Source: Candidatus Doudnabacteria bacterium (lineage in GTDB: Bacteria > Patescibacteriota > Doudnabacteria > UBA920). Taken from it: 64,000 nt of DNA. The DNA lies in contig JARLHZ010000025.1 in the NCBI GenBank assembly GCA_031291995.1, positions 25,174 through 89,173 of the forward strand. Direction: 5' to 3'. Position 1 is the first letter of the stretch. Each line of letters starts with the position of its first letter. Position numbers and translations under genes: made by a program. This document shows, in pieces, positions 3,136 to 63,184 of the stretch. Below the pieces are notes generated by a model. The model saw nothing but the letters and a program-made list of their open reading frames with translations. It ran no database searches and was not told where the DNA came from.

Positions 3136-5256
3136 TTGTGTCATCCCGCATTGAAAAATTGTATGTCCAAATTCAAACTTCAATCCAAATTCCAACCGGC
3201 GGGAGACCAGCCCGCGGCTATTGAGGGGTTATTAAAATCCCTCAAGGCCAAACGCCGCTACCAAACCCTGCTGGGTGTTACGGGAAGCGGTAAGACTTTT
3301 ACTATGGCCAATATTATAGAGAAAATCCAAAAACCAACGCTCATAATCAGCCATAATAAAACCCTGGCCGCGCAACTGGCCGCGGAATTCCAGGAGTTTT
3401 TTCCGGACAACGCGGTCCACTATTTTGTATCTTACTACGATTATTACCAGCCCGAAGCCTATATCCCCCGCTCCGACACATATATTGAAAAAGATACCCA
3501 AATTAACGAAGAAATAGACCGGTTAAGGAACGCGGCCACGCAATCGCTTTTGTCGCGAAAGGACGTGCTGATTGTGGCTTCGGTGTCCTGCATTTACGGT
3601 TTAGGCAATCCGGCCAATTATTTGGAGCTGTCGCTGGCCATAAAAAAAGGACAGAGCTTAAAACGCGACAAATTGCTCAGGCGGCTGACTGATTTGCAAT
3701 TCCACCGCAACGACATCGACCTGCAGCGCGGTACCTTCCGTGTCCACGGCGACGTGCTGGAAATTATTTTATCTTCAGAAGACACGATTATCCGCATGGA
3801 TTTCTTTGGCGACGTACTGGAAAAAATCGAACGGCTGGACGCGGTGTCCGGCCACAAAATTGAGGAGCTGGATGAATTTATGATTTTCCCGGCCAAGCAT
3901 TTTGTCACTCCCGAGGACAAACTAAAAGAAGCGGAAGAAAACATCCGTCTGGAACTTATAGACCGGCTCAAGGAGCTAAAGTCACAGGGCAAAGTTTTAG
4001 AGGCCGCCCGTTTGGAACAGCGCACCAATTTTGATTTGGAAATGTTGACCAATACCGGTTTTGTGGCCGGCATAGAAAACTATTCCCGGGTATTGGAAGG
4101 CCGCGAGCCGGGCAGTCCGCCTTCCACGCTTATTGATTACTTCCCCGATGATTTTTTGCTATTTTTGGACGAATCCCACCAAACGGTACCGCAAATTGGC
4201 GCCATGTACGAAGGCGACAAATCCCGCAAAACCACTTTGGTTGATTACGGTTTCCGTTTGCCCAGCGCGCTCGACAATCGCCCGTTAAAATTTAACGAAT
4301 TCGAAAAAAAGATCAATCAGGTAATTTTTGTTTCGGCCACGCCGGCGGAATTTGAAATAGAGCGAAGCTTGACGCAAAAAGACACCAAATTCGTGACCAA
4401 ATCCAAACGGACCGAAGCCGAGCAAAGCATTATAGACGCCCGGCCAAAATTAAAACAAATGGACCCGCCGTCCATTGTGGAGCAAATCATCCGCCCCACC
4501 GGACTTATTGACCCGACAATTGAAATAAAGCCGATTAAGAACCAGGTGGACGACTTAATAGAAAGAATTAAGGAACGGATTGCTAAACACCAGAGAGTAC
4601 TCGTAGCCACACTGACCAAACGCATGGCCGAAGAGCTGGCGGAATATTTGAAAGAGGACGGCATTAAAGTCCAGTACATGCATTCGGACGTGGATACTTT
4701 TGAACGTTTGGAAATTTTACGCGACCTCCGGCTGGGAGTTTACGATGTTTTGGTGGGCATTAACCTGCTGCGCGAAGGTTTGGATCTCCCGGAAGTCTCT
4801 CTGGTTGCGATTTTGGACGCGGATAAAGAAGGCTTCCTGCGCTCCGAAACCTTCTTTATGCAAATGATGGGCCGCGCCGCTCGCCATTTGGAAGGTCATG
4901 TTGTTATGTACGCCGACAGAATTACCGGCTCCATGCAACGCGCGATTGACGAAACCAACCGCCGGCGCAAGCTCCAGGAAACCTATAACAAAAAACACGG
5001 CATTACGCCGCAAAGCATCCAAAAAGCCATTGGCGATTCGCGAATGGCCGGCAGCAAAGTGGAATTTGAAACAGCCGACGACGAACAAAAACGCCGCGAC
5101 CCCGGCAAAATGGACAAACAGGAACTAAAATTTTATCTGGACGAATTAAACGAGCAAATGGACCTGGCCTCAAAAAACCTGGAATTCGAGATCGCGGCAA
5201 AAATACGCGACAGGATTGAAGAAATAAAAAAAATAAATAAACTAAAAAGTCGATAA
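3136..5256 (+). CDS. uvrB: Excinuclease ABC subunit B
   Basis: 706 aa with Walker A GVTGSGKT, helicase motifs and a C-terminal UvrB/UvrC interaction helix ([17 protein letters not shown]). Confidence 0.95.
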
Positions 5257-12354: not shown

Positions 12355-13020
12355 TTATATGTCAAATTCCTTTAATCGCTCTCTGGTTTCCGTAATCGTC
12401 ATTTCGGTAATTTGCTCCGGCTTTATAGCGCAACAGGCAAAAATTTGTTGTTCAATGTGCCGCAGAGCGTTCTCAAATGCCAGCCTTTTTTGTTCACTGC
12501 CCCATTCCTGGTGCCGGTGGGCGTATCTGGCGCGCAAATCGTCAAATCTGCCTTCCAAACTTACCACCCCGCACGGACTGACGCGGCTGTCGCAATAAGC
12601 GCAAATTTTTTTGCCAAAATCATGGCCGGCGGAATTTTCAACCGCAGTTTCAAAACCAATTGCGTCTATCAGCTCAAGTTTTCTGGGGTTCACGCCTAAC
12701 TCACGCGCAATTTTTAAACTGGCCGCATGTTCATCCGCTCCATATTTTTTACCGTATTGATCTTTTACCTTCTGCCAAAAATTTACGTCAATGTCTTTAT
12801 TTATCACCAAATGGCTATTGCTTAAATCAAACTTCAAAATATTCCCCATATCATGCAGCAAGCACACGGCCACTATATCGTATCGGTTAAGGGTTAAGGA
12901 TGAAGGATTAGGGATATTATCAATTATCACATCCGCCACCGCCGCGACCCTCAGTTGGTGTTCCGCGAGCTGTGGCATTATCTGATATTTTTTATAAACC
13001 TGTAAAATTTTCATATTCAC
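12355..13020 (-). CDS. HD-domain phosphohydrolase (YfbR-like 5'-deoxynucleotidase family)
   Basis: H..RVA (AEHQLRVAAVADVI) and LLHDMGN motifs. Cys-rich C-terminal half. Confidence 0.55.
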   Translation of the reverse strand: MNMKILQVYKKYQIMPQLAEHQLRVAAVADVIIDNIPNPSSLTLNRYDIVAVCLLHDMGNILKFDLSNSHLVINKDIDVNFWQKVKDQYGKKYGADEHAASLKIARELGVNPRKLELIDAIGFETAVENSAGHDFGKKICAYCDSRVSPCGVVSLEGRFDDLRARYAHRHQEWGSEQKRLAFENALRHIEQQIFACCAIKPEQITEMTITETRERLKEFDI

Positions 13021-13379
13021 GGCTTTTCTAAAAGCAAAATTCTTTTTTCAAATCCGCCATTTTTTTCTCGTTTCCCTGTTTGCACGGCCTGAATGTCTTC
13101 CAAATTCCATCCCTTGAATTTAATTATGGATGTTATCAATTCCAAGATATCCGCCAGCTCTTCTTGCATATCGGAATCATCAACGGAACGCGACAGCTCC
13201 GTTGATTCTTCGACCATTTTCCTCAACAAATACTGCCAAAACTCCTTGTCGTCCAAAGTTCTGGTCTTGGCTGTTAACCCCCGGCTTTGGATAAACTCCG
13301 GGATGTTGTCCCGGACTAATTTTGGGTATTCATTATTACTTTCCTGATCGGTTCGCATAAATACTTTAAAGCAACTCAA
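13017..13379 (-). CDS. MazG-like nucleoside triphosphate pyrophosphohydrolase (small all-alpha NTP-PPase)
   Basis: YPKLVRDNIPEFI...EELADILELI pattern. 4-nt overlap with the HD gene. Confidence 0.6.
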   Translation of the reverse strand: MSCFKVFMRTDQESNNEYPKLVRDNIPEFIQSRGLTAKTRTLDDKEFWQYLLRKMVEESTELSRSVDDSDMQEELADILELITSIIKFKGWNLEDIQAVQTGKREKNGGFEKRILLLEKP

Positions 13380-32099: not shown

Positions 32100-33062
32100 C
32101 CAATAACTTAAGACTAAAGGGTTCCAAAACTTGAGCACTTTTCTCTGAAACCAAAACAAAAATGAAAAAGAACAAAAAGGATTACAATCCGCTTGTTAAG
32201 CGGGTTAGTCAGAAGGAATTTAATCAGTATATTCTGCCTCAGCTTAAAAAGCCTTTAATGGGGCCAAAGCCTAAACTTTCCCTCTACAAAATCTTTAACT
32301 ACGTTTTGTATGTGCTATCCACCGGCTGCCAGTGGGAACAGCTGCCGATATACCGAAACGAAATTCACTGGAGCAATGTCTACAAGTGGCATAACCGCTG
32401 GAGCAAGAACGGCAGCTACCAGAATTTGTTTGAGTCTACTGTAGACCTACTAAACCAGAAAGGCAAACTCGATACTTCCATTCTCCATGGCGACGGTTCT
32501 AATACTGTCGCTAAAAAGGGGGAGAAAAAATCGGTTACAGCGGACACAAGCACCAGAAGGGCGAAAAAGCTCTTGCCATAGCGGATAATCGGGGAAATAT
32601 TATTTCATCGCTATTAGCTAAACCGGTAAACGAAACCGACATGGCGTTACTTGACCAAGCTTTTTATCAGTTGCTGGAAATTGCAGATGTTATTCACTTG
32701 GATTTAAAAGGAACCAAACTAACTTTAGACTCAGGGTTTGACTCTGAGCGGAACCATACCATCATCGAAGATGCTGAAATGATTCCGGTCATCAAGCCCA
32801 ATCGCAGAGGAACAAAGAACGAGGACAAACTACATGTGATGTTTGAAAAGGAAGACGATCAGGAAAAAGTTTACAAACAACGCTACAAGATTGAACGGAC
32901 TTTTGCCTGGGAGGATACTTACCGAAAGACTGTTATTCGCTATGAGAAGCGCTCCGATACCCATATGGGATTTAAGTACCTTGCTTACTCGCTGATTAAT
33001 CTTCGTTGGTTTTTAAAGAGAAAATGATTACTACTCGCTATGAGTTCAATCTTAAGTTTATT
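32100..33062 (+). mobile_element. IS5-family insertion sequence (about 0.96 kb), transposase split at an A6 tract
   Basis: Two consecutive ORFs (32162-32581 and 32641-33027) together encode an IS5-type DDE transposase (GCQWEQLP...LHGDGSNTVAKKG / ...LDSGFDS...RYKIERTFAWED). Candidate imperfect terminal inverted repeats ATAACTTAAGAC (around 32103) and ATCTTAAGTTTAT (around 33051). Boundaries are approximate. Confidence 0.6.
32162..33027 (+). pseudogene. IS5-family transposase interrupted by a -1 frameshift at GAG-AAA-AAA-T (A-run 32525-32530); either a programmed frameshift or an inactivated gene
   Basis: Reading in the -1 frame from the A6 run gives GEKIGYSGHKHQKGEKALAIADNRGNIISSLLAKPVNETDMALLDQ..., which joins ORF1 seamlessly to ORF2. 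Confidence 0.55.
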
Positions 33063-33167
33063 ATAACATTTGGCGGACGAATTCCAAAGTCCGCGCTTAA
33101 ATTTCCAAAAACCGGATTATTTATGGTAAAATATTGTAAAGCAATATTAATTGAGGAGCAAACATAT

Positions 33168-33383
33168 ATGAAGCAAATGACCTGCGCCCAAATGGGCGGT
33201 CCGGCCACCTGCGCGACCGTAATCACCGGCGACACCGCCGAGGAAATGGTCAAAAATGGCATGGAACATATTACCCAGGAACACCCCGACCTGGCCGCGC
33301 AAATTTCAAAAATGACTCCCGAAGAAACATCAAAGTGGATGACCGAGTTCCAAATAAAGTTTGACGCGCTGCCCGTAATGTAA
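33168..33383 (+). CDS. DUF1059-family small protein
   Basis: MKQMTCAQMGGPATCATVITGDTAEEMVKNGMEHITQEHP... matches the DUF1059 pattern (M.Q..C.D.G..C.....G.T.EE....A.EH....H). RBS GAGGAG. The 33006 start in the ORF track is probably too long. Confidence 0.55.
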   Translation: MKQMTCAQMGGPATCATVITGDTAEEMVKNGMEHITQEHPDLAAQISKMTPEETSKWMTEFQIKFDALPVM

Positions 33384-39113: not shown

Positions 39114-39551
39114 ATGACTACCATAGCAATCTCCGGAGGTTTTGACCCCATTCACATCGGCCATGTGGAAATGATGAAGGAAGCCAAACAGCTCGGTGAC
39201 AGGCTGGTGGTGATAGTGAATAACGACAACTGGCTGAAAAAGAAAAAAGGCTTTGCCTTTATGAGCGAAGCCGAGCGTAGATATATAGTCGAGGCCATCC
39301 GCTATGTTGATGAAGTTATTTTGACCGGCCACCCCCAAAACCCGACCGACATGTCAGTATGCGCGGAACTGGAAAAACTCAAACCCGATATTTTTGCCAA
39401 CGGCGGCGACCGCCACCCCGAAGGCGACCCGGTTCCCGAAGTCGAACTCTGCAAAAAACTCGGCATTCAAATGCTCTACAACATCGGCAAAAGCGGCAAA
39501 ATCCAAAGTTCCAGCGAACTGGTCAAGCGTGTCAGGGAAATAAAGAAATAA
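39114..39551 (+). CDS. Cytidylyl/adenylyl-transferase-like nucleotidyltransferase (TagD / RfaE-domain-II family)
   Basis: ISGGFDPIHIGHVEMM carries the H-x-G-H motif. 145 aa. Confidence 0.65.
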   Translation: MTTIAISGGFDPIHIGHVEMMKEAKQLGDRLVVIVNNDNWLKKKKGFAFMSEAERRYIVEAIRYVDEVILTGHPQNPTDMSVCAELEKLKPDIFANGGDRHPEGDPVPEVELCKKLGIQMLYNIGKSGKIQSSSELVKRVREIKK

Positions 39552-39556
39552 AGGTT

Positions 39557-39576
39557 CCCCGCCGCAAGCAGCGGGG
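39557..39576 (+). terminator. GC hairpin after the nucleotidyltransferase gene
   Basis: ccccgccgcaagcagcgggg. A second hairpin plus T-run lies at 39754-39790 (ccggtatggataagtgcgaatccataccg-acttttttg). Confidence 0.45.
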
Positions 39577-40087
39577 TATTACTGCAAGGAACAGCTGCAT
39601 CTTCGCGGCAAGCCGCTAGGTATTGAACCTTTCTTTCCGCCAAAGGCGGATCCGCCTCCGGCGGAAGTTCCCTGCCTGGCGGCAGGCAGGCCTCGGCTCG
39701 CTTGTCCATTGAAAGACAAAGGACAGACTCGCCTACGTCGCGAATAAATAGCGCCGGTATGGATAAGTGCGAATCCATACCGACTTTTTTGATGGCGTTC
39801 ATTTTAGGATCCAGCGAACGCCAATGACGGGGCGGAACGTTTGGCGGTCAACGAGCGGAGCAAACCACAGCTTAAATGCAGTACGCGGGATAGAAAGCTC
39901 CACTTTCGGTCCGTTGCACTTAAAGCGCTCGGAAAAGCTGCCTAGCCCTAAAGTTTTGCTCATCCGGTAATTAGTTTCCACCTTGTACCAAAAGCCGCTG
40001 CCACCGTCCTCAAACACCGCGAGGCCAGAAAGTTTGGCCTTGCCCACCCAAATAAGGACGAATTAAGCTATTGACATACAATATAAT

Positions 40088-41518: not shown

Positions 41519-42247
41519 TTATCTTATTACCTTCCACTCCTTGCTGTGTGAACGGTCGAAAACGGTCACGTGGAGGGAGTTGCGGACCCATTGCCAGATA
41601 AGCCTGGGCCAGCCGATTTTGTGTGGGCGTCGGCCGGTGTGGTAAACCAGCAGCTTGGGATCGGTTTTGGTGCGTCCTAATTTGGATATCCGATAAAATA
41701 AATCTATATCCTCGCCAATGGTCAGGTCTTCCCGGTATCCGCCCAGTTCCCGATAAACTTCCGCGGTCATCATTTGAAATTCCCCGCAAGTACTGCCGCT
41801 GTGGAACCAATTATTTTTAATATAAAACTGCCAATCCGATAAAATCACATAACCCAAATAGTCGGCCCAAGTTTCAGTCTCAGGAAAAACCCTGACCCAG
41901 CCGCTCAAACCTTTTAGCCGCGGGTTAAGTTTAAATTTGTCCAAAGCTCTGGCAAAAAACTTGTCCGGTTCCGGAATGTAAACGTCCGCGTCCAAAAAAA
42001 CCAAATACTCACCCGTGGCCAAAGCCGCGCCGCGGTTCCGGCCTTCGCCAATAGTCTGCCGGCGGCCGCTGGCATTCCCCGCGATCTTTACTCCATACCT
42101 TCCGGCAATCTCCAGAGTTTTATCTGTGCTTTTCCCGTCGCTGACAATAATTTCGCAGTCGACAGCCGTAACAGACTTAAGGTTTTTTAGCAGCTTTTCC
42201 AGCACCGACTCTTCGTTTAAGGTGGGGATTATAAACGAAATGGTCAT
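41519..42247 (-). CDS. Family 2 glycosyltransferase
   Basis: ISFIIPTLNEE...EIIVSDGKSTDKT...VFLDADV matches the GT-A DxD fold. Confidence 0.75.
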   Translation of the reverse strand: MTISFIIPTLNEESVLEKLLKNLKSVTAVDCEIIVSDGKSTDKTLEIAGRYGVKIAGNASGRRQTIGEGRNRGAALATGEYLVFLDADVYIPEPDKFFARALDKFKLNPRLKGLSGWVRVFPETETWADYLGYVILSDWQFYIKNNWFHSGSTCGEFQMMTAEVYRELGGYREDLTIGEDIDLFYRISKLGRTKTDPKLLVYHTGRRPHKIGWPRLIWQWVRNSLHVTVFDRSHSKEWKVIR

Positions 42248-42849
42248 AGTTTGTTTTTTAGCAACAATTGTTTAAAATACTTACCGCCGCCGTAGAGAAG
42301 GCCAACCATAAACACGGACAGGGCGATGATAAAAACCACTTTAAAGCCCCTGTTTAACACGGCATACAGATTGCCAAAAAAATAACCCGCCGCCAGAAGG
42401 ACTCCCGTCCAGATAAACCCGCCGAAAAAATTAAACAGCGCGTACTTTTTAAAATTTACCTTTACCAGCCCGGCAGTAAAAAGCGTGGCTACGGCAAACC
42501 CAAAACCCATAGTCAGTTTGGAGATAACCAAAATCTTGTCCTGATGCTTATGGAAAAAGTCCTCGATTTTTTCCACCACATCGGGAGTCAGGCTGAAATA
42601 TTTGCCGAACCGGTCCACAAACGGACGTCCGCCGTAATAGCCGACCCAATACCACGCCAGGTCGGCGACAAAATCCCCAAGCATTAACGAAAAATAAACC
42701 GGCAAAAAATAAAAAAACCCCAATCGCAGAAGTATGCCACTGGCTACCATGACCATTGGGCCTTCAAAAATCGCCAGGACAAAAGTCAGCACGTAGCGAT
42801 AATAAGCCAATCCCGATAACAAATTTTCCAACAACGCCTGAAAAGGCAT
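42244..42849 (-). CDS. DedA/VTT-domain membrane protein
   Basis: 201 aa, multi-TM, with the VTT core FEGPMVMVASGIL...GRPFVDRFGKYF. 4-nt overlap with the GT2 gene. Confidence 0.7.
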   Translation of the reverse strand: MPFQALLENLLSGLAYYRYVLTFVLAIFEGPMVMVASGILLRLGFFYFLPVYFSLMLGDFVADLAWYWVGYYGGRPFVDRFGKYFSLTPDVVEKIEDFFHKHQDKILVISKLTMGFGFAVATLFTAGLVKVNFKKYALFNFFGGFIWTGVLLAAGYFFGNLYAVLNRGFKVVFIIALSVFMVGLLYGGGKYFKQLLLKNKL

Positions 42850-47754: not shown

Positions 47755-48038
47755 AAGTACCGAAATGAGAGTAACTTCACGCGGATAAACGCGGTAAGAC
47801 AACCTCATAAATTTTGTTTCTGCGAAGTCCCGCGTGAGGTTCCGCGCTCTTCAGCGATAGTGGATTTATTCTAACAGGGGGTTATCAACATGTAAACACT
47901 TGTAAACAGCGCATGTTTGACACTTAAAGCGCTAAGGCTGTTTATATCCTGTGGACAGGTTGTGTTTTTTTAAAAATTCAAATTATTTCCGGATTTGCCG
48001 TTGACTAATGGGCCGCTTTTCTTTATAATTACCGTTGT
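47755..48038. promoter_or_regulatory. Putative oriC and divergent promoter region between dnaA and rpmH
   Basis: DnaA-box-like TTATCAACA (47882-47890), AGTGGATTT (47859-47867) and the palindrome CCTGTGGACAGG containing TGTGGACAG. Direct repeats TGTAAACA x2. AT-rich stretch tttttttaaaaattcaaattatttcc (candidate DUE). Consensus promoter TTGACT-17-TATAAT (48001-48029) for rpmH. Confidence 0.6.
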
Positions 48039-48173
48039 ATGAAAAGAACTTATCAGCCAAAAGTAAAACGCCGCAAAGTCCGACATGGATTTTTAAAGCG
48101 TATGCAAACCAGGACCGGCAGGGCAGTTTTGGCGCGCCGACGCGCAAAAGGCCGCAAAAAACTCAGCGTATAG
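48039..48173 (+). CDS. rpmH: 50S ribosomal protein L34
   Basis: [44 protein letters not shown], read directly. Missed by the ORF track because it is shorter than the track's cut-off. Confidence 0.95.
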
Positions 48174-48193
48174 GCTTTTGGCTCAGCCACCTT

Positions 48194-48520
48194 ATGCTAA
48201 AAAAAGTTAACCGTCTGGCCAAAGCTAAGGATATTTTCGCAACCCTTGGCAGAGGGCGGACTTTTTTTAACCCTTATTTTAGCGTCAAATTTTTGCGGCG
48301 CTCCGGAGCCAGCCGTTTTACGGTTGTTGTTTCGACGAAGGTTTACAAAAGCGCGGTTAAGCGGAATCGGCTAAAGCGAGTTGCTCGCGAATTTTTGCGC
48401 CGCCGGCTTACAGAGCTTCCCGCGGGCGACTATTTAATTTCGGCCAAGCCGAAAATAAGAGGCCTGCCGGAAAACCAAAGACTGGGGTGGTTTTCAGATT
48501 TAATATCTAAAATCCGATGA
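48194..48520 (+). CDS. rnpA: Ribonuclease P protein component
   Basis: FSVKFLRRSGASRFTVVVSTKVYKSAVKRNRLKRVAREFLR is the RnpA signature. Located directly after rpmH. Confidence 0.85.
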   Translation: MLKKVNRLAKAKDIFATLGRGRTFFNPYFSVKFLRRSGASRFTVVVSTKVYKSAVKRNRLKRVAREFLRRRLTELPAGDYLISAKPKIRGLPENQRLGWFSDLISKIR

Positions 48521-48780
48521 TTAAATTTATTTCTGAATTGCCGAAAAAAATAGTGTTAAGCCTGATAGGCTTGTATCAGGTAACTCTTTCGCCTGACCAT
48601 GGTTTTTTCCGCGCGCGGTTTCCCCATGGTTACTGTCGTTTTTATCCGTCTTGCAGCGACTATGCCAGGCAATCAATTATTAATTTTGGTTTAATTAAAG
48701 GCGGTTATTTGGGAGCCAAAAGAGTTTTACGTTGTCACCCCTGGGCCGAACCCAAGTTTGACCCGGTTCCCCGAACATAG
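48517..48780 (+). CDS. yidD: Membrane protein insertion efficiency factor YidD
   Basis: LIGLYQVTLSP...CRFYPSCSDYA...HPW(G)EP is the YidD signature. Overlaps the rnpA stop. Confidence 0.9.
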   Translation: MIKFISELPKKIVLSLIGLYQVTLSPDHGFFRARFPHGYCRFYPSCSDYARQSIINFGLIKGGYLGAKRVLRCHPWAEPKFDPVPRT

Positions 48781-58541: not shown

Positions 58542-58617
58542 GTAGTTTACGAAGTACGAATTTTTACGAACATACGAAGGGTTCGTAAGTTCGTAACCGT
58601 TCGTACTTCGTAAAATT
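58542..58617. repeat. Family-A palindromic element, copy 2 (perfect 14-bp arms TTACGAAGTACGAA / TTCGTACTTCGTAA)
   Basis: gtagtttacgaagtacgaatttttacgaacatacgaagggttcgtaagttcgtaaccgttcgtacttcgtaaaattt. It lies 4 nt upstream of the rsmI start on the opposite strand. Confidence 0.75.
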
Positions 58618-58928
58618 TACCAGTTCTTATCCGGTGCCTCCAGGCCAAACGCTTCTTCCAAAAAATCGTATTCGGCTTTGAGCCTGTCGCGGACTTCTTC
58701 CATTTCGTCTTTTTCCGACCCTTCGGCCTCGTACCACTGGTCGTAGCCGGCTTTTAACTCGTCGTCAATCTCCTGCAGGCGCGCGTAAGCCTCGGCCTCG
58801 CTTTGCGGGCCGGCGCTTTGCCATTCATCAAAGGGAATTCCCATGCGCTTCTTGTATTTTTCTTGATAGAGATCCTTAATATCATCCTGGTCCATAAAAT
58901 TAAAATTAATTGATTTTTTTGTTTGCAT
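58617..58928 (-). CDS. Hypothetical acidic protein (103 aa)
   Basis: ORF with a charged, helical composition and no recognisable family. Confidence 0.35.
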   Translation of the reverse strand: MQTKKSINFNFMDQDDIKDLYQEKYKKRMGIPFDEWQSAGPQSEAEAYARLQEIDDELKAGYDQWYEAEGSEKDEMEEVRDRLKAEYDFLEEAFGLEAPDKNW

Positions 58929-59275
58929 TTACTAGATTAGCACAAGATTAGAATTTTTGCATCTTTTCCAAATGAAAAACCCTCTATGGTTTGCCAAGGC
59001 CGTCGGGCCGTAAAGGCAAATAGAGGGTTTCCCCGAAAAGTCAAAAGAAGTGTATAGTTATAAGCATAACCTTATAACCAATCGCCTGAAAAATCAGGGC
59101 GATTAAGTCATCACCGTCAGGTGACGTGGTTGCTAAACTATTAGATTGTTTTTGATTTTTGTTTCTTCGAATGAAGAACTAACTTTTCTATACTTAGTAT
59201 AGCAGATTTTTCGGAAGTTGTCTAGAGCATAAAAAAATCAAGATTATCGTCTCACTTAGACTTGCGAATTGAAAT

Positions 59276-59710
59276 TTAGAGCAGCTCAATGGTTTCTATA
59301 TCCGGGATTTTTTTATGAGCGCGCGCGTCGGCGCTTAATAATGGAATATTCAGAATTTTTGACAATGCGGCATACGAAGCGTCGTAAAAAGTTAAATTAT
59401 GACGAGTCATTATTTCTACAGCAGTGGAAGTTAACAGCGTATCAGGCGGGAAGATTTGTATTCGGGAATTGTATAAATCCTCTATGGCCTCGGTAATTTC
59501 ACCAGCCGAAAATTTTTTACCTTTTCCAAGCGCGTTGACCACTTCGTAAATCAGCAAGTCCGGCGCGAATAGCTCTGCGCTCCCCGCAAAGCACCTGGCT
59601 AATAAATTTTCTGCTTGGGTGGTTCCAGCCTCCTCGCTAAATAATTTTACCGCTATCGAGGCGTCTATAACTACCCGCTTGATGTGTTCAGTGGTTATTT
59701 CTGTCGGCAT
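59276..59710 (-). CDS. vapC: PIN-domain toxin (VapC-like)
   Basis: VVIDASIAVKLF...DLLIYEVVNAL...LTFYDASYAALS is the PIN acidic-residue pattern. Confidence 0.7.
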   Translation of the reverse strand: MPTEITTEHIKRVVIDASIAVKLFSEEAGTTQAENLLARCFAGSAELFAPDLLIYEVVNALGKGKKFSAGEITEAIEDLYNSRIQIFPPDTLLTSTAVEIMTRHNLTFYDASYAALSKILNIPLLSADARAHKKIPDIETIELL

Positions 59711-59963
59711 AAATGAATTTGCTAAGATTTTGTTTTTTGCCGCTTTTGCGCAATTTGGCGAGGCTTTCTTTTATTTCTCCCCAAACAGGCCCGCTATACG
59801 AGGCTTTAGCCTTTAATTTTTCGTAACTTTCGGCGTCTATTAACACGGCTTCTTTTTTTAAACGCGCGCCCAAATACACAGGCCTCCCGGTTTTTTTGGC
59901 CTGATTTATGAGTTGTCTGTAATTCCGCTGTATTTGGCGTATTGATATAATTTGTTCGTCCAT
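59688..59963 (-). CDS. Phd/YefM-type antitoxin
   Basis: MDEQIISIRQIQRNYRQLINQAKKTGRPVYL...AVLIDAESYEKL is the Phd/YefM N-terminal pattern. Overlaps the PIN gene. Confidence 0.65.
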   Translation of the reverse strand: MDEQIISIRQIQRNYRQLINQAKKTGRPVYLGARLKKEAVLIDAESYEKLKAKASYSGPVWGEIKESLAKLRKSGKKQNLSKFIYADRNNH

Positions 59964-60010
59964 GATTGTATTATATTTGACATACAATTGTATGTCAAAT
60001 ATTAAATATT

Positions 60011-61585
60011 TTAAAAAAGCTTTCCCTCGGCCTTTTTACCTTGTTCCGCCCAAGAAGCCAGGAAGCGGTTTATAAATTCCTGCGGACTTTTTTGCATTTC
60101 CAAAAATTCGGAGAGTATAACAGCCACCGTCAGAAGGATATGGTATTCCTGAAAACCGGAGGTCTTGGCTTTTTGCCAGGCAGGGTGCTTAATGTTTATG
60201 GTTAGGGTGTCGTCTATAATCCGGCCCAGGGCTTGGCTTGGTGTATCGTTAATTTCTCCTAAGACTATTTGGATTCCCGTTTGCCTGGCTTTAACCAAAT
60301 TTTTTGCTTCCGATTTTCCAGTTCCTTTTGGCAGCACCTCGTTTTTTTCATTTTTGCCGCTCTCTGGGCCGTTGTCCGGATTGGTTTGGTCCTGACGATT
60401 CTCACCACTACGCAATTCCAACTCGGATTTTTTTCTGTCCGATTTGCCGAGAACGCGTTTGGCCCGCGAACCCATCAGGCTTTCCAGCTCCGGGAAATCA
60501 TCCACCAGATTATTCAGAGCTTGATCGATAGTTTTATTCAGGGGTTTGATAATTTTTTCCGGCGCGACTTCGGATTTTTCGCGGCTTTCCCCCAGGCTTT
60601 CCAAAATGGGGAGGACGGCTTCTTGAATCGCTTTCCGGTACTTATAGTATTTTTTTAAAGATGTTGCGTCGCTTAAAAAGTCGTTTTTATTGGTAGTTAA
60701 AATTTCCGCCAAAGCGGGGATTTCCACTATGCCTGCCAGCGTTTCATTATTTTTTGGCAGAATACCCAGCCATTCCCAGCCGCCCTTTATGACTTTACCG
60801 AAGGTGGAAATATACAGGCCGGGCCTAAGCGAAGTCAAACGGTCGTTCTTGCCCAGCACTTTTTCAAGCCAGTTTAACGGATTTTGGGTTTTAGTTAAAT
60901 ATCCCACGCCAATGGGCGCGCGGGCTTTGCCCTGGCGGATGGAAAACCAGTGGAGCAATTCGTCCTGGCTATTTTCCGGAACCGCGATGGGTTGCCCGTT
61001 AACATAAAACTCAATCGGTTTTTTATAAAAATACTTAAGCAAGTCCCGCATTATTTTTTGGTTTAACAGCGGATAAAAATGCTTTAAGATAGATTCACGG
61101 ACAAAATCAATTTTTAATAAATGGGATTGGCTGTCTGCAAAATGTATGGCCACCGACGTGCCTCGCGGGCTATTAATTTTATCACTAAAAGTAATAAATT
61201 TCCACGGCGCTCGGTAAGGCCCGGTCAATTGCCAAGTAGTGGCGCAATGGCTGCCGTAGCCGCCTTTGCTCTCGGTTATTACCTGACTGGCAATCAGTAG
61301 CGAGAGCTTTGCCCCCACGCCGGCAAAACCGATGCCGCTGCCGCGGGTTTTGGTAGAAGCGGCTATGTTATGGTAATTTTTTATAGCTCCCCTTTTCATA
61401 CCGTTGCCGTTGTCGGTACAGCGAATAAATTTATTTACAACGTCCACGTCAAAATCCACTCTCGTAGCCTTGCTGTCCAGGGCATTGGCCACCAGTTCCG
61501 TCAAAATAATTTCTTCCAAAGGCGAGGTATAAGAGTCCCTTATGTCCTCCAAAAGATGCTGTAAGTTAACGCGGGTTTCGTTCAT
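60011..61585 (-). CDS. GHKL-superfamily ATPase (HATPase_c_3 / MORC-like Bergerat fold) with a roughly 350-aa uncharacterised C-terminal region
   Basis: Motif I ELVANALDS, motif II DNGNGM, G-rich motif III GSGIGFAGVG. Start chosen at MNETRV..., which overlaps the upstream gene's stop as ATGA. Confidence 0.65.
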   Translation of the reverse strand: MNETRVNLQHLLEDIRDSYTSPLEEIILTELVANALDSKATRVDFDVDVVNKFIRCTDNGNGMKRGAIKNYHNIAASTKTRGSGIGFAGVGAKLSLLIASQVITESKGGYGSHCATTWQLTGPYRAPWKFITFSDKINSPRGTSVAIHFADSQSHLLKIDFVRESILKHFYPLLNQKIMRDLLKYFYKKPIEFYVNGQPIAVPENSQDELLHWFSIRQGKARAPIGVGYLTKTQNPLNWLEKVLGKNDRLTSLRPGLYISTFGKVIKGGWEWLGILPKNNETLAGIVEIPALAEILTTNKNDFLSDATSLKKYYKYRKAIQEAVLPILESLGESREKSEVAPEKIIKPLNKTIDQALNNLVDDFPELESLMGSRAKRVLGKSDRKKSELELRSGENRQDQTNPDNGPESGKNEKNEVLPKGTGKSEAKNLVKARQTGIQIVLGEINDTPSQALGRIIDDTLTINIKHPAWQKAKTSGFQEYHILLTVAVILSEFLEMQKSPQEFINRFLASWAEQGKKAEGKLF

Positions 61586-61881
61586 ATTAAGTAAGCGAAT
61601 TGGGTAAAGTATTCTTCCAGCAGACTGGGGGAATATTCTATATCTTTGCTGTTTGCATGCCAACCACTAACAAGTTCTTTTGTTTTATTCAGTTCTTTTT
61701 TAGCGGACATGGGAATATTGCCTTCCAACGTGGCATCAAGCATCTCTAAAATCCGGTGCAAGGACATATTCCTGGCTAAAATATCCTTCTTGTCGTCCCA
61801 CAACCTGGCACGCGCGACTTCACTGCCAATGTTGCCGAGTTTTTGGTGAAGAGTGAATTTGTTCCAGCGTTCTATGTTCAT
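61582..61881 (-). CDS. Small hypothetical protein (99 aa), translationally coupled on both sides. Contains an R-x4-H motif (RNMSLHRI), possibly HEPN-like; that is speculative.
   Basis: ATGA overlaps with both neighbours. Predicted all-alpha. Confidence 0.4.
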   Translation of the reverse strand: MNIERWNKFTLHQKLGNIGSEVARARLWDDKKDILARNMSLHRILEMLDATLEGNIPMSAKKELNKTKELVSGWHANSKDIEYSPSLLEEYFTQFAYLI

Positions 61882-62228
61882 ATGGAAATAAGTTTATTTA
61901 CAATTGCCGTAATCTTATTTTTTATGAAGGGGTCTTGAATTTCCATGCCGCGATTATTTTGCCTGGGGCGGATGTTAATCAACGAAACAAACGCTATCAT
62001 GCCATCTGGAGACTTGTCAGGATAAATGTTAATTCCCCAAAGGTTTGTTTGAGTCGAGCCGTTTTCCAAGAGCGCGCTTTCCGCATCGGCGTGCCATTCA
62101 CCGCCAATAGCAATAATACCGCGTTCAATATCAACCACAGCCTTAACCATGTCGCCGTAGCTATCGGCAGCTATTTGTTTAACTTCGGCAAGCGTGATTC
62201 TGTTTGTGATAATCTTTATTTCCATCAT
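61878..62228 (-). CDS. Conserved small protein (116 aa, DUF5674-like from memory). Function unknown.
   Basis: MMEIKIITNRITLAEVKQIAADSYGDMVKAVVDIERGIIAIGGEWHADAESALLENGSTQTNLWGINIYPD. The family assignment is from recollection and not verified. Confidence 0.4.
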   Translation of the reverse strand: MMEIKIITNRITLAEVKQIAADSYGDMVKAVVDIERGIIAIGGEWHADAESALLENGSTQTNLWGINIYPDKSPDGMIAFVSLINIRPRQNNRGMEIQDPFIKNKITAIVNKLISI

Positions 62229-62262
62229 AGCCGTTGTATTTTATCCCCATTCAAAGTTTTTT

Positions 62263-63060
62263 TCAAGTTGTAGTATTTTTCTGCGAAGCCGCGTTGTGTA
62301 GTCTTTTTGCTTCTTCCCACGCAAGATCGTAAAGTGTTTTTACTGAATCGGCAATTTCCTGGCTCTCTATTATTATTCCCAGTCTTTCCCGCCAGGAGGC
62401 AATCATTACTTTATTGTCGTAAACGTCTATTTCCGGAATGAATTTATATTTATCGGCCGGGATGAATGCGGTATCGCGCAGCTCTTCTTTGTCGTTTGCG
62501 GAAATTTTTCTCCCCTCTTCATTGGCGGAAAGAATGGCCTTAATATTTAGCCCCCTTTGCGCACGGCGCTTATAATATTTTGGAAAATACTTTGGCAAGC
62601 CAGCATGCATTTCATTTACGTTGGCAATCCCGCGAATGGGCTCGTGCGATGTAAGCGTATCATCGTATACATGCTCCAGACCCGCACTACCCTCATAAAA
62701 AGTTATTTTTGGGCGATTGCTGACATTGTGCATGGATTTAAGCTGTGGCACTAAATTTTGCGCTTCTAATAATATGCCTTGCTTTTCCGCAAGCTCGTCT
62801 CTTAACATGTTTAAAATATTATCCGGAGACTCTGCCACATACTCTTGTAGCGGCTCTTTGCCAGAGATGCTGACAAGCCTTTTTGAAATTAGTGATTCCA
62901 AAATATCGTAAACAGTTGTTCTATTTATTCCCGCTTTTCGGGCTATTGCGGAAACAGTTCTTTTGCCAAGTTCAAGCAGAGCCAAATATATCACAATCTC
63001 TTTGTCGGAAAACCCAATTCTTATAAGGCTCTTATATATTGGCAATTCGTGGTTTAACAT
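62263..63060 (-). CDS. TrmB-family-like winged-helix transcriptional regulator
   Basis: N-terminal LIRIGFSDKEIVIYLALLELGKRTVSAIARKAGINRTTVYDILESLISKRLV wHTH, plus a roughly 170-aa C-terminal domain. Confidence 0.55.
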   Translation of the reverse strand: MLNHELPIYKSLIRIGFSDKEIVIYLALLELGKRTVSAIARKAGINRTTVYDILESLISKRLVSISGKEPLQEYVAESPDNILNMLRDELAEKQGILLEAQNLVPQLKSMHNVSNRPKITFYEGSAGLEHVYDDTLTSHEPIRGIANVNEMHAGLPKYFPKYYKRRAQRGLNIKAILSANEEGRKISANDKEELRDTAFIPADKYKFIPEIDVYDNKVMIASWRERLGIIIESQEIADSVKTLYDLAWEEAKRLHNAASQKNTTT

Positions 63061-63184
63061 AGGTTTTTGTTTAATATCTATATATTAATAGTATAGCAAA
63101 AAAAAGGTAATTGTGTCAATACTATTCCACAAAACATGTAAATTTATAGATTTAGTCTTAAATAAAGGATAATTAGGATATATA

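Follow-up and report, generated by a model that had tools for sequence, protein, structure and literature searches.

The 64,000-nucleotide (nt) window analysed here is a stretch of a Candidatus Doudnabacteria genome (GenBank assembly GCA_031291995.1, contig JARLHZ010000025.1, positions 25,174 to 89,173 of the forward strand). Between window positions 59276 and 63060 it carries six consecutive minus-strand genes, which encode a TrmB-like winged-helix regulator, a DUF5674 protein, a 99-amino-acid (aa) protein, a GHKL ATPase, a Phd/YefM-type antitoxin and a VapC-type PIN toxin. A sequence-only reading of this locus had proposed that the first four genes form an undescribed defence or stress module. 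We find that the locus is very probably not one four-gene system. Three independent units lie side by side on one strand: a backbone pair of regulator and ATPase genes, a cassette with DUF5674 and the 99-aa protein, and a cassette with a toxin–antitoxin (TA) pair. The earlier observation was confirmed and its interpretation is supported in part: what looked like a module is the backbone pair juxtaposed with two cassettes that were inserted beside it. Two of the genes, DUF5674 and that of the 99-aa protein, do make up a genuine unit, which is near-obligate, has not been described and is the part of the locus worth following up.

Two sets of gene neighbourhoods were compared, one around the GHKL family (six contexts, then 80 metagenome loci) and one around DUF5674 (80 genome loci plus nine extra contexts). 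By blastn and gene maps, the relatives of the backbone are about 77–80% identical to the window at the DNA level. The gene order in locus L100 is TrmB, GHKL, an acidic protein, RsmI, a 23S-IVP protein and YebC, and L009 has the same order with a PALP gene after GHKL. In blastn against these two loci, the TrmB gene, the GHKL gene and the downstream genes all align, and the only unmatched segments of the window are 62304-61587 and 60007-59208. The first is cassette 1 (61587..62304), which holds DUF5674 and its partner. The second is cassette 2 (59208..60007), the 800-nt Phd-VapC segment, whose boundaries come from blastn and gene maps; neither segment is assigned a strand.

The edges of cassette 1 are sharp. 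Homology ends at window position 62305, the end of the TrmB gene, and restarts at 61586, 1 nt ahead of the GHKL ATG. In the relatives a spacer of roughly 190-210 nt (211 nt in L100) lies between TrmB and GHKL, and in the window cassette 1 replaces it. The pair is inserted flush with the GHKL start codon, and therefore the ATGA overlap between the partner and GHKL genes is a junction made by the insertion. TrmB stands directly ahead of GHKL, with no DUF5674 pair between them, in L009, L099 and L100, which are 81% identical relatives. The slot taken by Phd-VapC in the window contains 22 nt in L100, the PALP gene in L009 and a DUF5674 pair in L017, where the order is AbiEi, AbiEii, GHKL, DUF5674 and partner. 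Both flanks of the GHKL gene accept small cassettes, so that the two sides of one ATPase gene are an insertion hotspot in the genome-reduced Patescibacteria.

The wider samples show the same independence. The GHKL family occurs in none of the 80 DUF5674 loci, and of the 78 GHKL-bearing loci just the window and L017 have the DUF5674 pair near GHKL, in different gene orders. The neighbours of GHKL are variable and comprise MNT/HepT, AbiEi/AbiEii, Phd/ParE, PIF1 helicases or plain housekeeping genes. Among the sampled GHKL loci, only L004 and the closest relatives have TrmB ahead of GHKL. The backbone consists of the TrmB-like regulator gene and then the Hsp90-fold GHKL ATPase gene, which the small acidic protein, RsmI and YebC follow in Doudnabacteria-like relatives. 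DUF5674 and its partner are a self-contained unit, inherited and transferred jointly across many phyla and inserted at the GHKL start. Phd-VapC, with a promoter and a palindromic operator of its own, is inserted directly behind the GHKL stop. A promoter-like site overlaps the TrmB stop (62238..62266, minus strand; TTGAAA-17-TAAAAT, 10/12, a pattern match only) and lies 9-10 nt ahead of the DUF5674 ATG. It could drive DUF5674, the partner and GHKL as one transcript, in which case this genome alone may express GHKL together with the pair.

Had TrmB, DUF5674, the 99-aa protein and GHKL co-evolved as one system for defence or stress, in which the small proteins partner the ATPase or act as its effectors, the locus would have added a new GHKL-based defence system; this is not what it holds. 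The module is refuted by the test named in the sequence-only reading itself, co-occurrence of the three overlapping genes in other genomes. DUF5674 and the 99-aa protein are indeed paired elsewhere, but the counts above show that GHKL is not linked to them, and the closely related TrmB-GHKL loci lack the pair. The module reading also drew on two successive ATGA overlaps, and both are real when read directly: tccatATGAacata joins DUF5674 to the partner gene (61881-61878) and ttaatATGAacgaa joins the partner to GHKL (61585-61582). The second, however, is the insertion junction and not an ancestral coupling. Five other ATGA/GTGA overlaps occur among 64 same-strand junctions of the window, so an overlap alone is weak evidence of functional linkage. 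The adjacency of the pair to this GHKL family in the window and L017, and the TA modules around GHKL in several relatives, would favour a single system. A search with PADLOC 2.0 for a known anti-phage defence system returned no component except a generic helix-turn-helix (HTH): the TrmB winged helix weakly matches the HTH of CasR/Csa3, and the other five proteins have no match at E<=1. We therefore regard a single co-evolved system as highly improbable.

A second account accepts the insertion and adds that the pair now works with GHKL in this Doudnabacteria lineage, through the replaced upstream region and translational coupling. It is consistent with the flush insertion at the GHKL start, which removed the approximately 200-nt upstream spacer, and with the pair standing on either side of the same gene in two related genomes. 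In L182, moreover, a second and unrelated GHKL-superfamily protein, of 336 aa and with HATPase_c_2 and STAS-like DUF4325 domains (L182:3981-4991), is encoded directly upstream of the pair. Such recruitment is nevertheless distinctly unlikely. The closest homologues of the pair mostly lie beside PPDK_N and not beside a GHKL, and the same slots take Phd-VapC, AbiEi/AbiEii or a PALP gene, a variety that an insertion hotspot would be expected to show. GHKL could also be driven alone by a promoter-like site within the partner gene (61663-61635, minus strand, found by consensus scan).

Several points weigh against the reading of three independent units. We found no flanking repeats, tRNA or RNA elements marking either insertion, and neither target-site duplications nor mobile-element genes beside either cassette; the term insertion is thus inferred from genome comparison alone. 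In two related genomes the pair adjoins a member of this GHKL family, each time in a different arrangement, and this two-sided adjacency could mean a lineage-specific functional tie and not a shared insertion hotspot.

The DUF5674 gene (61878..62228, minus strand) encodes 116 aa and matches PF18924 with E=6.9e-41 and 139.1 bits against a cut-off of 27. Its 99-aa partner is encoded at 61582..61881 on the same strand. A hidden Markov model (HMM) of the partner family matches the open reading frame (ORF) immediately downstream of DUF5674 in 77 of the 80 loci, over about 20 phyla, and the commonest spacing between the two genes is a 4-nt overlap. The three exceptions are a divergent partner (L096), a contig end (L059) and a decayed copy (L061), and the pair is present in all nine extra contexts too. 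The two proteins have diverged together, as their distance matrices correlate with r=0.64 (Mantel), a value that none of 500 permutations reached. Apart from the pair itself, the 80 DUF5674 loci share no conserved gene. Fusions of the two proteins were not found, the long matches being mis-called starts.

DUF5674 is an acidic alpha/beta protein in which K29, D33, H46, W64, G65, N67, I84 and N85 are invariant. The partner family is marked by the motif W-x8-LGNIGSEVxRA, and R43 and E63 are invariant across its 77 homologues; the sequence pattern suggests that its fold is probably helical. The first product is acidic and the second is basic (median isoelectric points (pI) 5.0 and 8.8), and the mean pairwise identity is 53% for DUF5674 and 41% for the partner. 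None of the 77 partner members matches Pfam, and the 99-aa protein of the window has no NCBIfam or PADLOC match. The partner family is therefore without a Pfam or NCBIfam model, and the other half of the pair is known only as a domain of unknown function (DUF). No credible sequence relative was found in the PDB for DUF5674 or for the partner family, nor a confident PDB match to the DUF5674 fold. DUF5674, PF18924 and the Nostoc accession numbers have no mention in the searchable literature. The earlier suggestion that an R-x4-H string in the 99-aa protein may be a HEPN motif does not hold: the string exists (R37-x4-H42), but the residue at position 42 varies between E, G, N and K among close homologues, and no His is conserved in the 77.

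An exhaustive profile search recovered 1323 clusters of the partner family at 50% identity, whereas a word-index search gave 17 homologues only. For DUF5674 there are at least 621 homologues, and no fewer than 546 species-representative genomes carry it. Its hosts include many Patescibacteria lineages, Nitrospirota, Planctomycetota, Elusimicrobiota, Omnitrophota, Acidobacteriota, Actinomycetota and Gemmatimonadota, and further Chlamydiota, Bacteroidota, Ignavibacteria, WOR-3, Rokubacteria/Methylomirabilota and an Oscillibacter isolate. The spread over about 20 phyla is patchy, at about 50-59% identity. The neighbours of most DUF5674 loci are heterogeneous housekeeping genes, with no enrichment of mobile or defence genes, and six loci share the order GAPDH, pair, AspRS and ScpAB. 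In viruses, DUF5674 has one match in 2.9 million viral contigs and none in the phage genome collection.

DUF5674 is also found on 32 Nostocales plasmids, of which 18 are conjugative, and some of the records contain it twice. On the Nostoc plasmids the downstream gene escapes the partner HMM yet keeps LGHIASNLAR, a version of LGNIGSEVxRA, and because this motif is kept we take the Nostocales plasmid version for a diverged branch of the pair, in a host that can be cultured. In Nostoc punctiforme pNPUN01 (L180:4992-5679, NPUN_RS34590/34595) and in L181, DUF5674 is followed by an overlapping gene for a 118-aa 'hypothetical protein'. On plasmid alpha of Nostoc PCC 7120 a copy lies in two pieces with no annotated gene. 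Other loci show duplication or decay. In L084 the pair occurs twice on one strand, with about 2.6 kb separating the copies (1852-2525 and 4456-5120). In L185:3509-6413 the partner is truncated and PPDK_N is fragmented next to two transposase genes, which indicates a decaying locus. This is a tightly conserved and unstudied pair that occurs in tractable organisms, for example in N. punctiforme on pNPUN01 and in the Oscillibacter isolate.

A hint to the function of the pair comes from its neighbours in the genomes of the candidate phyla radiation (CPR), which resemble a split phosphoenolpyruvate (PEP)-synthase/rifampicin-phosphotransferase/PigC-type system. In L013, L015, L182, L183, L184 and L185 the gene directly after the partner is a PPDK_N orthologue, within a few nt in the three full-length loci checked (L015, L182 and L183), and genes with the PEP-utilizer swivel domain are nearby in most of the closest relatives of the window pair. 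In L017, PPDK_N is 3 kb from the pair. Overall, 8 of the 80 DUF5674 loci contain PEP-utilizers or PPDK_N genes, versus none of the 80 GHKL control loci. The candidate-phyla clusters (L015:1-7242, L182:1-6745, L013:1029-6887, L029, L038 and L060) have one stand-alone ATP-grasp PPDK_N of about 310-360 aa. They also have several paralogues of 350-490 aa, with an unassigned N-terminus and a C-terminal PEP-utilizer phosphohistidine swivel domain. Such clusters, within which the DUF5674 pair is often found, have the look of a split rifampicin-phosphotransferase/PigC/PEP-synthase whose substrate modules can be exchanged.

The acidic, enzyme-like DUF5674, with the invariant His46 at a helix N-terminus and with K29, D33, N67 and N85, would form a complex with the basic, probably helical partner. 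We tentatively suggest, as the most probable of the roles considered, that the pair might be an accessory or regulator of the His-phosphorylated 'swivel-domain' phosphotransferases, for example by hydrolysing or relaying phosphohistidine. In a more specific form, which we consider unlikely as it stands, the pair would be a widely transferred module acting on phosphohistidine enzymes, composed of a PHPT1-like hydrolase or phospho-relay and a helical specificity or regulatory subunit, and would control the split system of PPDK_N and swivel paralogues, each paralogue with its own N-terminal domain, in the candidate phyla. To our knowledge, few bacterial phosphohistidine phosphatases are known, SixA being one example, and a link of this kind would give the pair a testable tie to phosphohistidine chemistry. 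Against it, 72 of the 80 DUF5674 loci lack a PPDK-type neighbour, and most of these 72 come from outside the candidate phyla. Within the window itself there are no PPDK_N or PEP-utilizer genes. Homology of DUF5674 to PHPT1, the 14-kDa phosphohistidine phosphatase of the PHPT1/Janus family, was rejected by sequence: hhalign gave a probability of 0.2, the HMM score was -1 bit, and the Smith-Waterman z was 0.3. PF05005 matches none of 105 DUF5674 members, and PHPT1 was not recovered by Foldseek.

The pair might alternatively be a selfish module of the TA kind, perhaps resembling type VII, in which DUF5674 would be an enzyme antitoxin that modifies the basic helical toxin encoded by the partner gene. 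If the pair is toxic and neutralising in this way, it would be a new TA type built from two unclassified folds. The pair consists of conserved small adjacent genes with a patchy, mobile distribution, and the two overlapping genes stand behind their own promoter-like site. The acidic-then-basic order of the products, the presence on conjugative plasmids, the tandem duplication in L084, the decayed copies in L061 and L185, and the occupation of the same slot as known TA cassettes all fit such a module. By analogy only, MntA-HepT of type VII is similar, with an acidic alpha/beta enzyme-like protein first and a basic one, helical by inference in our pair, second, with overlapping genes and a patchy distribution. 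Unlike MntA-HepT, DUF5674 lacks the nucleotidyltransferase motif and the partner lacks a conserved Rx4-6H, and there is no sequence or fold match. Moreover, no DNA-binding domain or operator palindrome was found in the pair, its conservation is unusually strong for a TA module, and in some lineages it keeps a stable housekeeping synteny (the six GAPDH loci). The neighbours without enrichment in mobile or defence genes, the near absence from phage collections and the lack of a PADLOC match point the same way. We hold the TA account to be possible but doubtful.

The GHKL ATPase (60011..61585, minus strand, 524 aa) matches HATPase_c_3 with E=4e-10. The motifs ELVANALDS, DNGNGM and GSGIGFAGVG, which had been picked out in the sequence-only reading, are present, and the Bergerat residues E30, N34, D58, G60, G62 and G82-G91 are invariant in 41 homologues. 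The family has more than 1153 homologues, uncharacterised and mostly from Patescibacteria, and a sequence identical to the window protein is deposited under Candidatus Doudnabacteria. Its profile matches the N-domains of Hsp90/GRP94 with E of about 4e-7. An AlphaFold2 (AF2) model of the protein has a predicted local distance difference test (pLDDT) score of 77.8, and the top 50 Foldseek hits of this model are all from the Hsp90 family (TRAP1, HSP90, GRP94 and HtpG), with E from 6.5e-15 and probability 1.0. The structural match takes in the N and middle domains, with about 370-400 columns aligned in the entries that comprise both domains. Residues 256-266 of the middle domain read GLYISTFGKVI, with G256, T261, G263, K264 and I266 invariant. 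The C-terminal domain (420-516) is beta-rich and helical and has no family match; N464, H467 and H482 are invariant in it. The protein probably acts as an ATP-driven dimeric clamp, and the G-L-x-I-S-T-x-G-K264 strand could supply the catalytic basic residue.

Like HtpG, TRAP1 and GRP94, the window protein combines a Bergerat ATP-binding domain with a middle domain. It could then be simply the Patescibacteria version of the chaperone HtpG, in a locus of housekeeping genes and TA insertions with no role in conflict. The Foldseek and profile results agree with this, as do the conserved position beside RsmI and YebC and the absence of GHKL from the 2.9 million viral contigs searched. However, the HtpG equivalog NF003555 scores 23.7 bits against a cut-off of 371, so full-length HtpG orthology was rejected. 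The protein also falls about 100 residues short of the 614 positions of the HtpG model, and its C-terminal domain is not assigned to a family. GHKL contexts also differ from those of Hsp90 in that they vary and abound in TA and restriction-modification genes: MNT/HepT, AbiE or ParE modules flank many relatives, and homologues of 38-44% identity stand between genes for DNA methyltransferases, for a conserved 152-aa protein and for ResIII helicases. All the above make the HtpG identity improbable.

Other ordinary identities were rejected as well. For MutL, TIGR00585 scores 25.3 against 180, the PDB MutL match covers residues 27-68 only, and Pfam finds no MutL_C. For a sensor histidine kinase, the ATPase domain begins at about residue 25, and there is no HisKA match. 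With these scores far under the NCBIfam cut-offs, the expectation of the sequence-only reading that GHKL is not an ordinary fragment of MutL, HtpG or a histidine kinase was borne out. A phage origin was also discarded, given the viral searches reported above for GHKL and DUF5674.

The MORC and paraMORC proteins combine a GHKL domain with an S5-like domain that carries the motif GhXhhpXXRhl, and they are associated with restriction-modification (Iyer, Abhiman and Aravind 2008, PMC2292703). The window protein has the same layout as described there, a GHKL domain and then an alpha+beta domain with a conserved basic residue, and its GLYISTFGKVI is similar to the MORC motif (PMC2292703) with K in place of the MORC R. 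In both groups members occur beside methyltransferases and ResIII/SFII helicases, in our family in a distant branch, and both have sporadic standalone members. In contrast, the top 50 Foldseek hits include no MORC or MutL, and the GHKL protein is not assigned to any of paraMORC1-5.

The distant branch just mentioned is formed by the homologues of 38-44% identity. In 21 loci a conserved gene for a 152-aa protein, with no Pfam match, lies directly downstream of GHKL. S24-N6_N4 or Eco57I-like methyltransferases are found upstream or nearby and a ResIII helicase at position +2 (L124-L159; for example L135:5001-9465 and L153:211-5155). This branch is a candidate restriction-modification-like system, in keeping with the paraMORC theme. 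The window has no member of the 152-aa family, and neither the window nor its clade (>=45% identity) has a methylase, helicase or nuclease neighbour. A large ATPase family with an Hsp90 fold, whose distant branch sits in restriction-modification-like operons, is worth examining.

The Phd-VapC genes are an ordinary autonomous type II TA cassette, unrelated to the upstream genes. The antitoxin gene comes first (59688..59963, minus strand, 91 aa from the ATG at 59963; PF02604, 34.2 bits against a cut-off of 29.8), and the PIN toxin gene (59276..59710, minus strand, 144 aa; PF01850 E=2.5e-16, 60.8 bits against 23.6) overlaps it by 23 nt. The translation contains the acidic PIN residues D16, E56, D110 and D128. 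A sigma-70-type promoter (59970..60002, minus strand; TTGACA-17-TATAAT, 12/12) is overlapped by a perfect 15+15-nt palindrome at 59973-60002, which is 100% complementary with no loop and is a probable autoregulatory operator of Phd-VapC. In antitoxin-first order, the 23-nt overlap, the four acidic PIN residues and the palindromic promoter, the cassette is like Phd/YefM-VapC type II modules, with nothing notable that differs. The Phd start is probably the ATG at 59963 and not the TTG at 59987, as the latter falls within the promoter and palindrome. This promoter lies immediately past the GHKL stop, and the Phd ATG is 6 nt after the -10 box, a short distance that suggests a leaderless Phd transcript. 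The DUF5674 ATG is likewise close to its -10-like box.

The TrmB-like regulator gene (62263..63060, minus strand, 265 aa) matches PF01978 with E=1.6e-15 over residues 14-79 only. It shares the N-terminal winged helix with TrmB and TrmBL1 but lacks their sugar-binding C-terminal domain, and full-length TrmB equivalogs score 36-38 bits on it against cut-offs of 600-650. As it is syntenic with the TrmB genes directly upstream of GHKL in L009, L099 and L100, the regulator belongs to the conserved backbone and not to the DUF5674 pair. A promoter-like site upstream of it (63090..63119, minus strand; TTGACA-18-TATACT) scored 11/12 in the consensus scan, as a pattern match only. Short TrmB-like genes are numerous in these genomes. 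L004:1-13539 has five TrmB-like genes and two RhuM-family genes within 13 kb around the GHKL homologue, with a DUF6155 gene after GHKL, a strikingly high density of TrmB-like paralogues for this variable region.

The ORF list of the window places all six genes on the minus strand at the positions reported earlier. Direct reading bore these positions out, together with the overlaps and the DUF5674 ATG 34 nt past the TrmB stop, and Pfam agreed with the identities first given to the regulator, the DUF protein, the GHKL ATPase and Phd-VapC. The GHKL ORF can be extended to a TTG at 61663, but the homologues begin with MxNETRVN, which favours the ATG at 61585 as its start. Downstream of the GHKL slot, window 58617-58928 on the minus strand encodes a highly acidic 103-aa protein with no Pfam match, which is syntenic in L009, L017 and L100. 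The five further possible 4-nt ATGA/GTGA junctions of the window lie at 12355-13379, 32641-33383, 39476-40047, 41519-42849 and 48035-48780.

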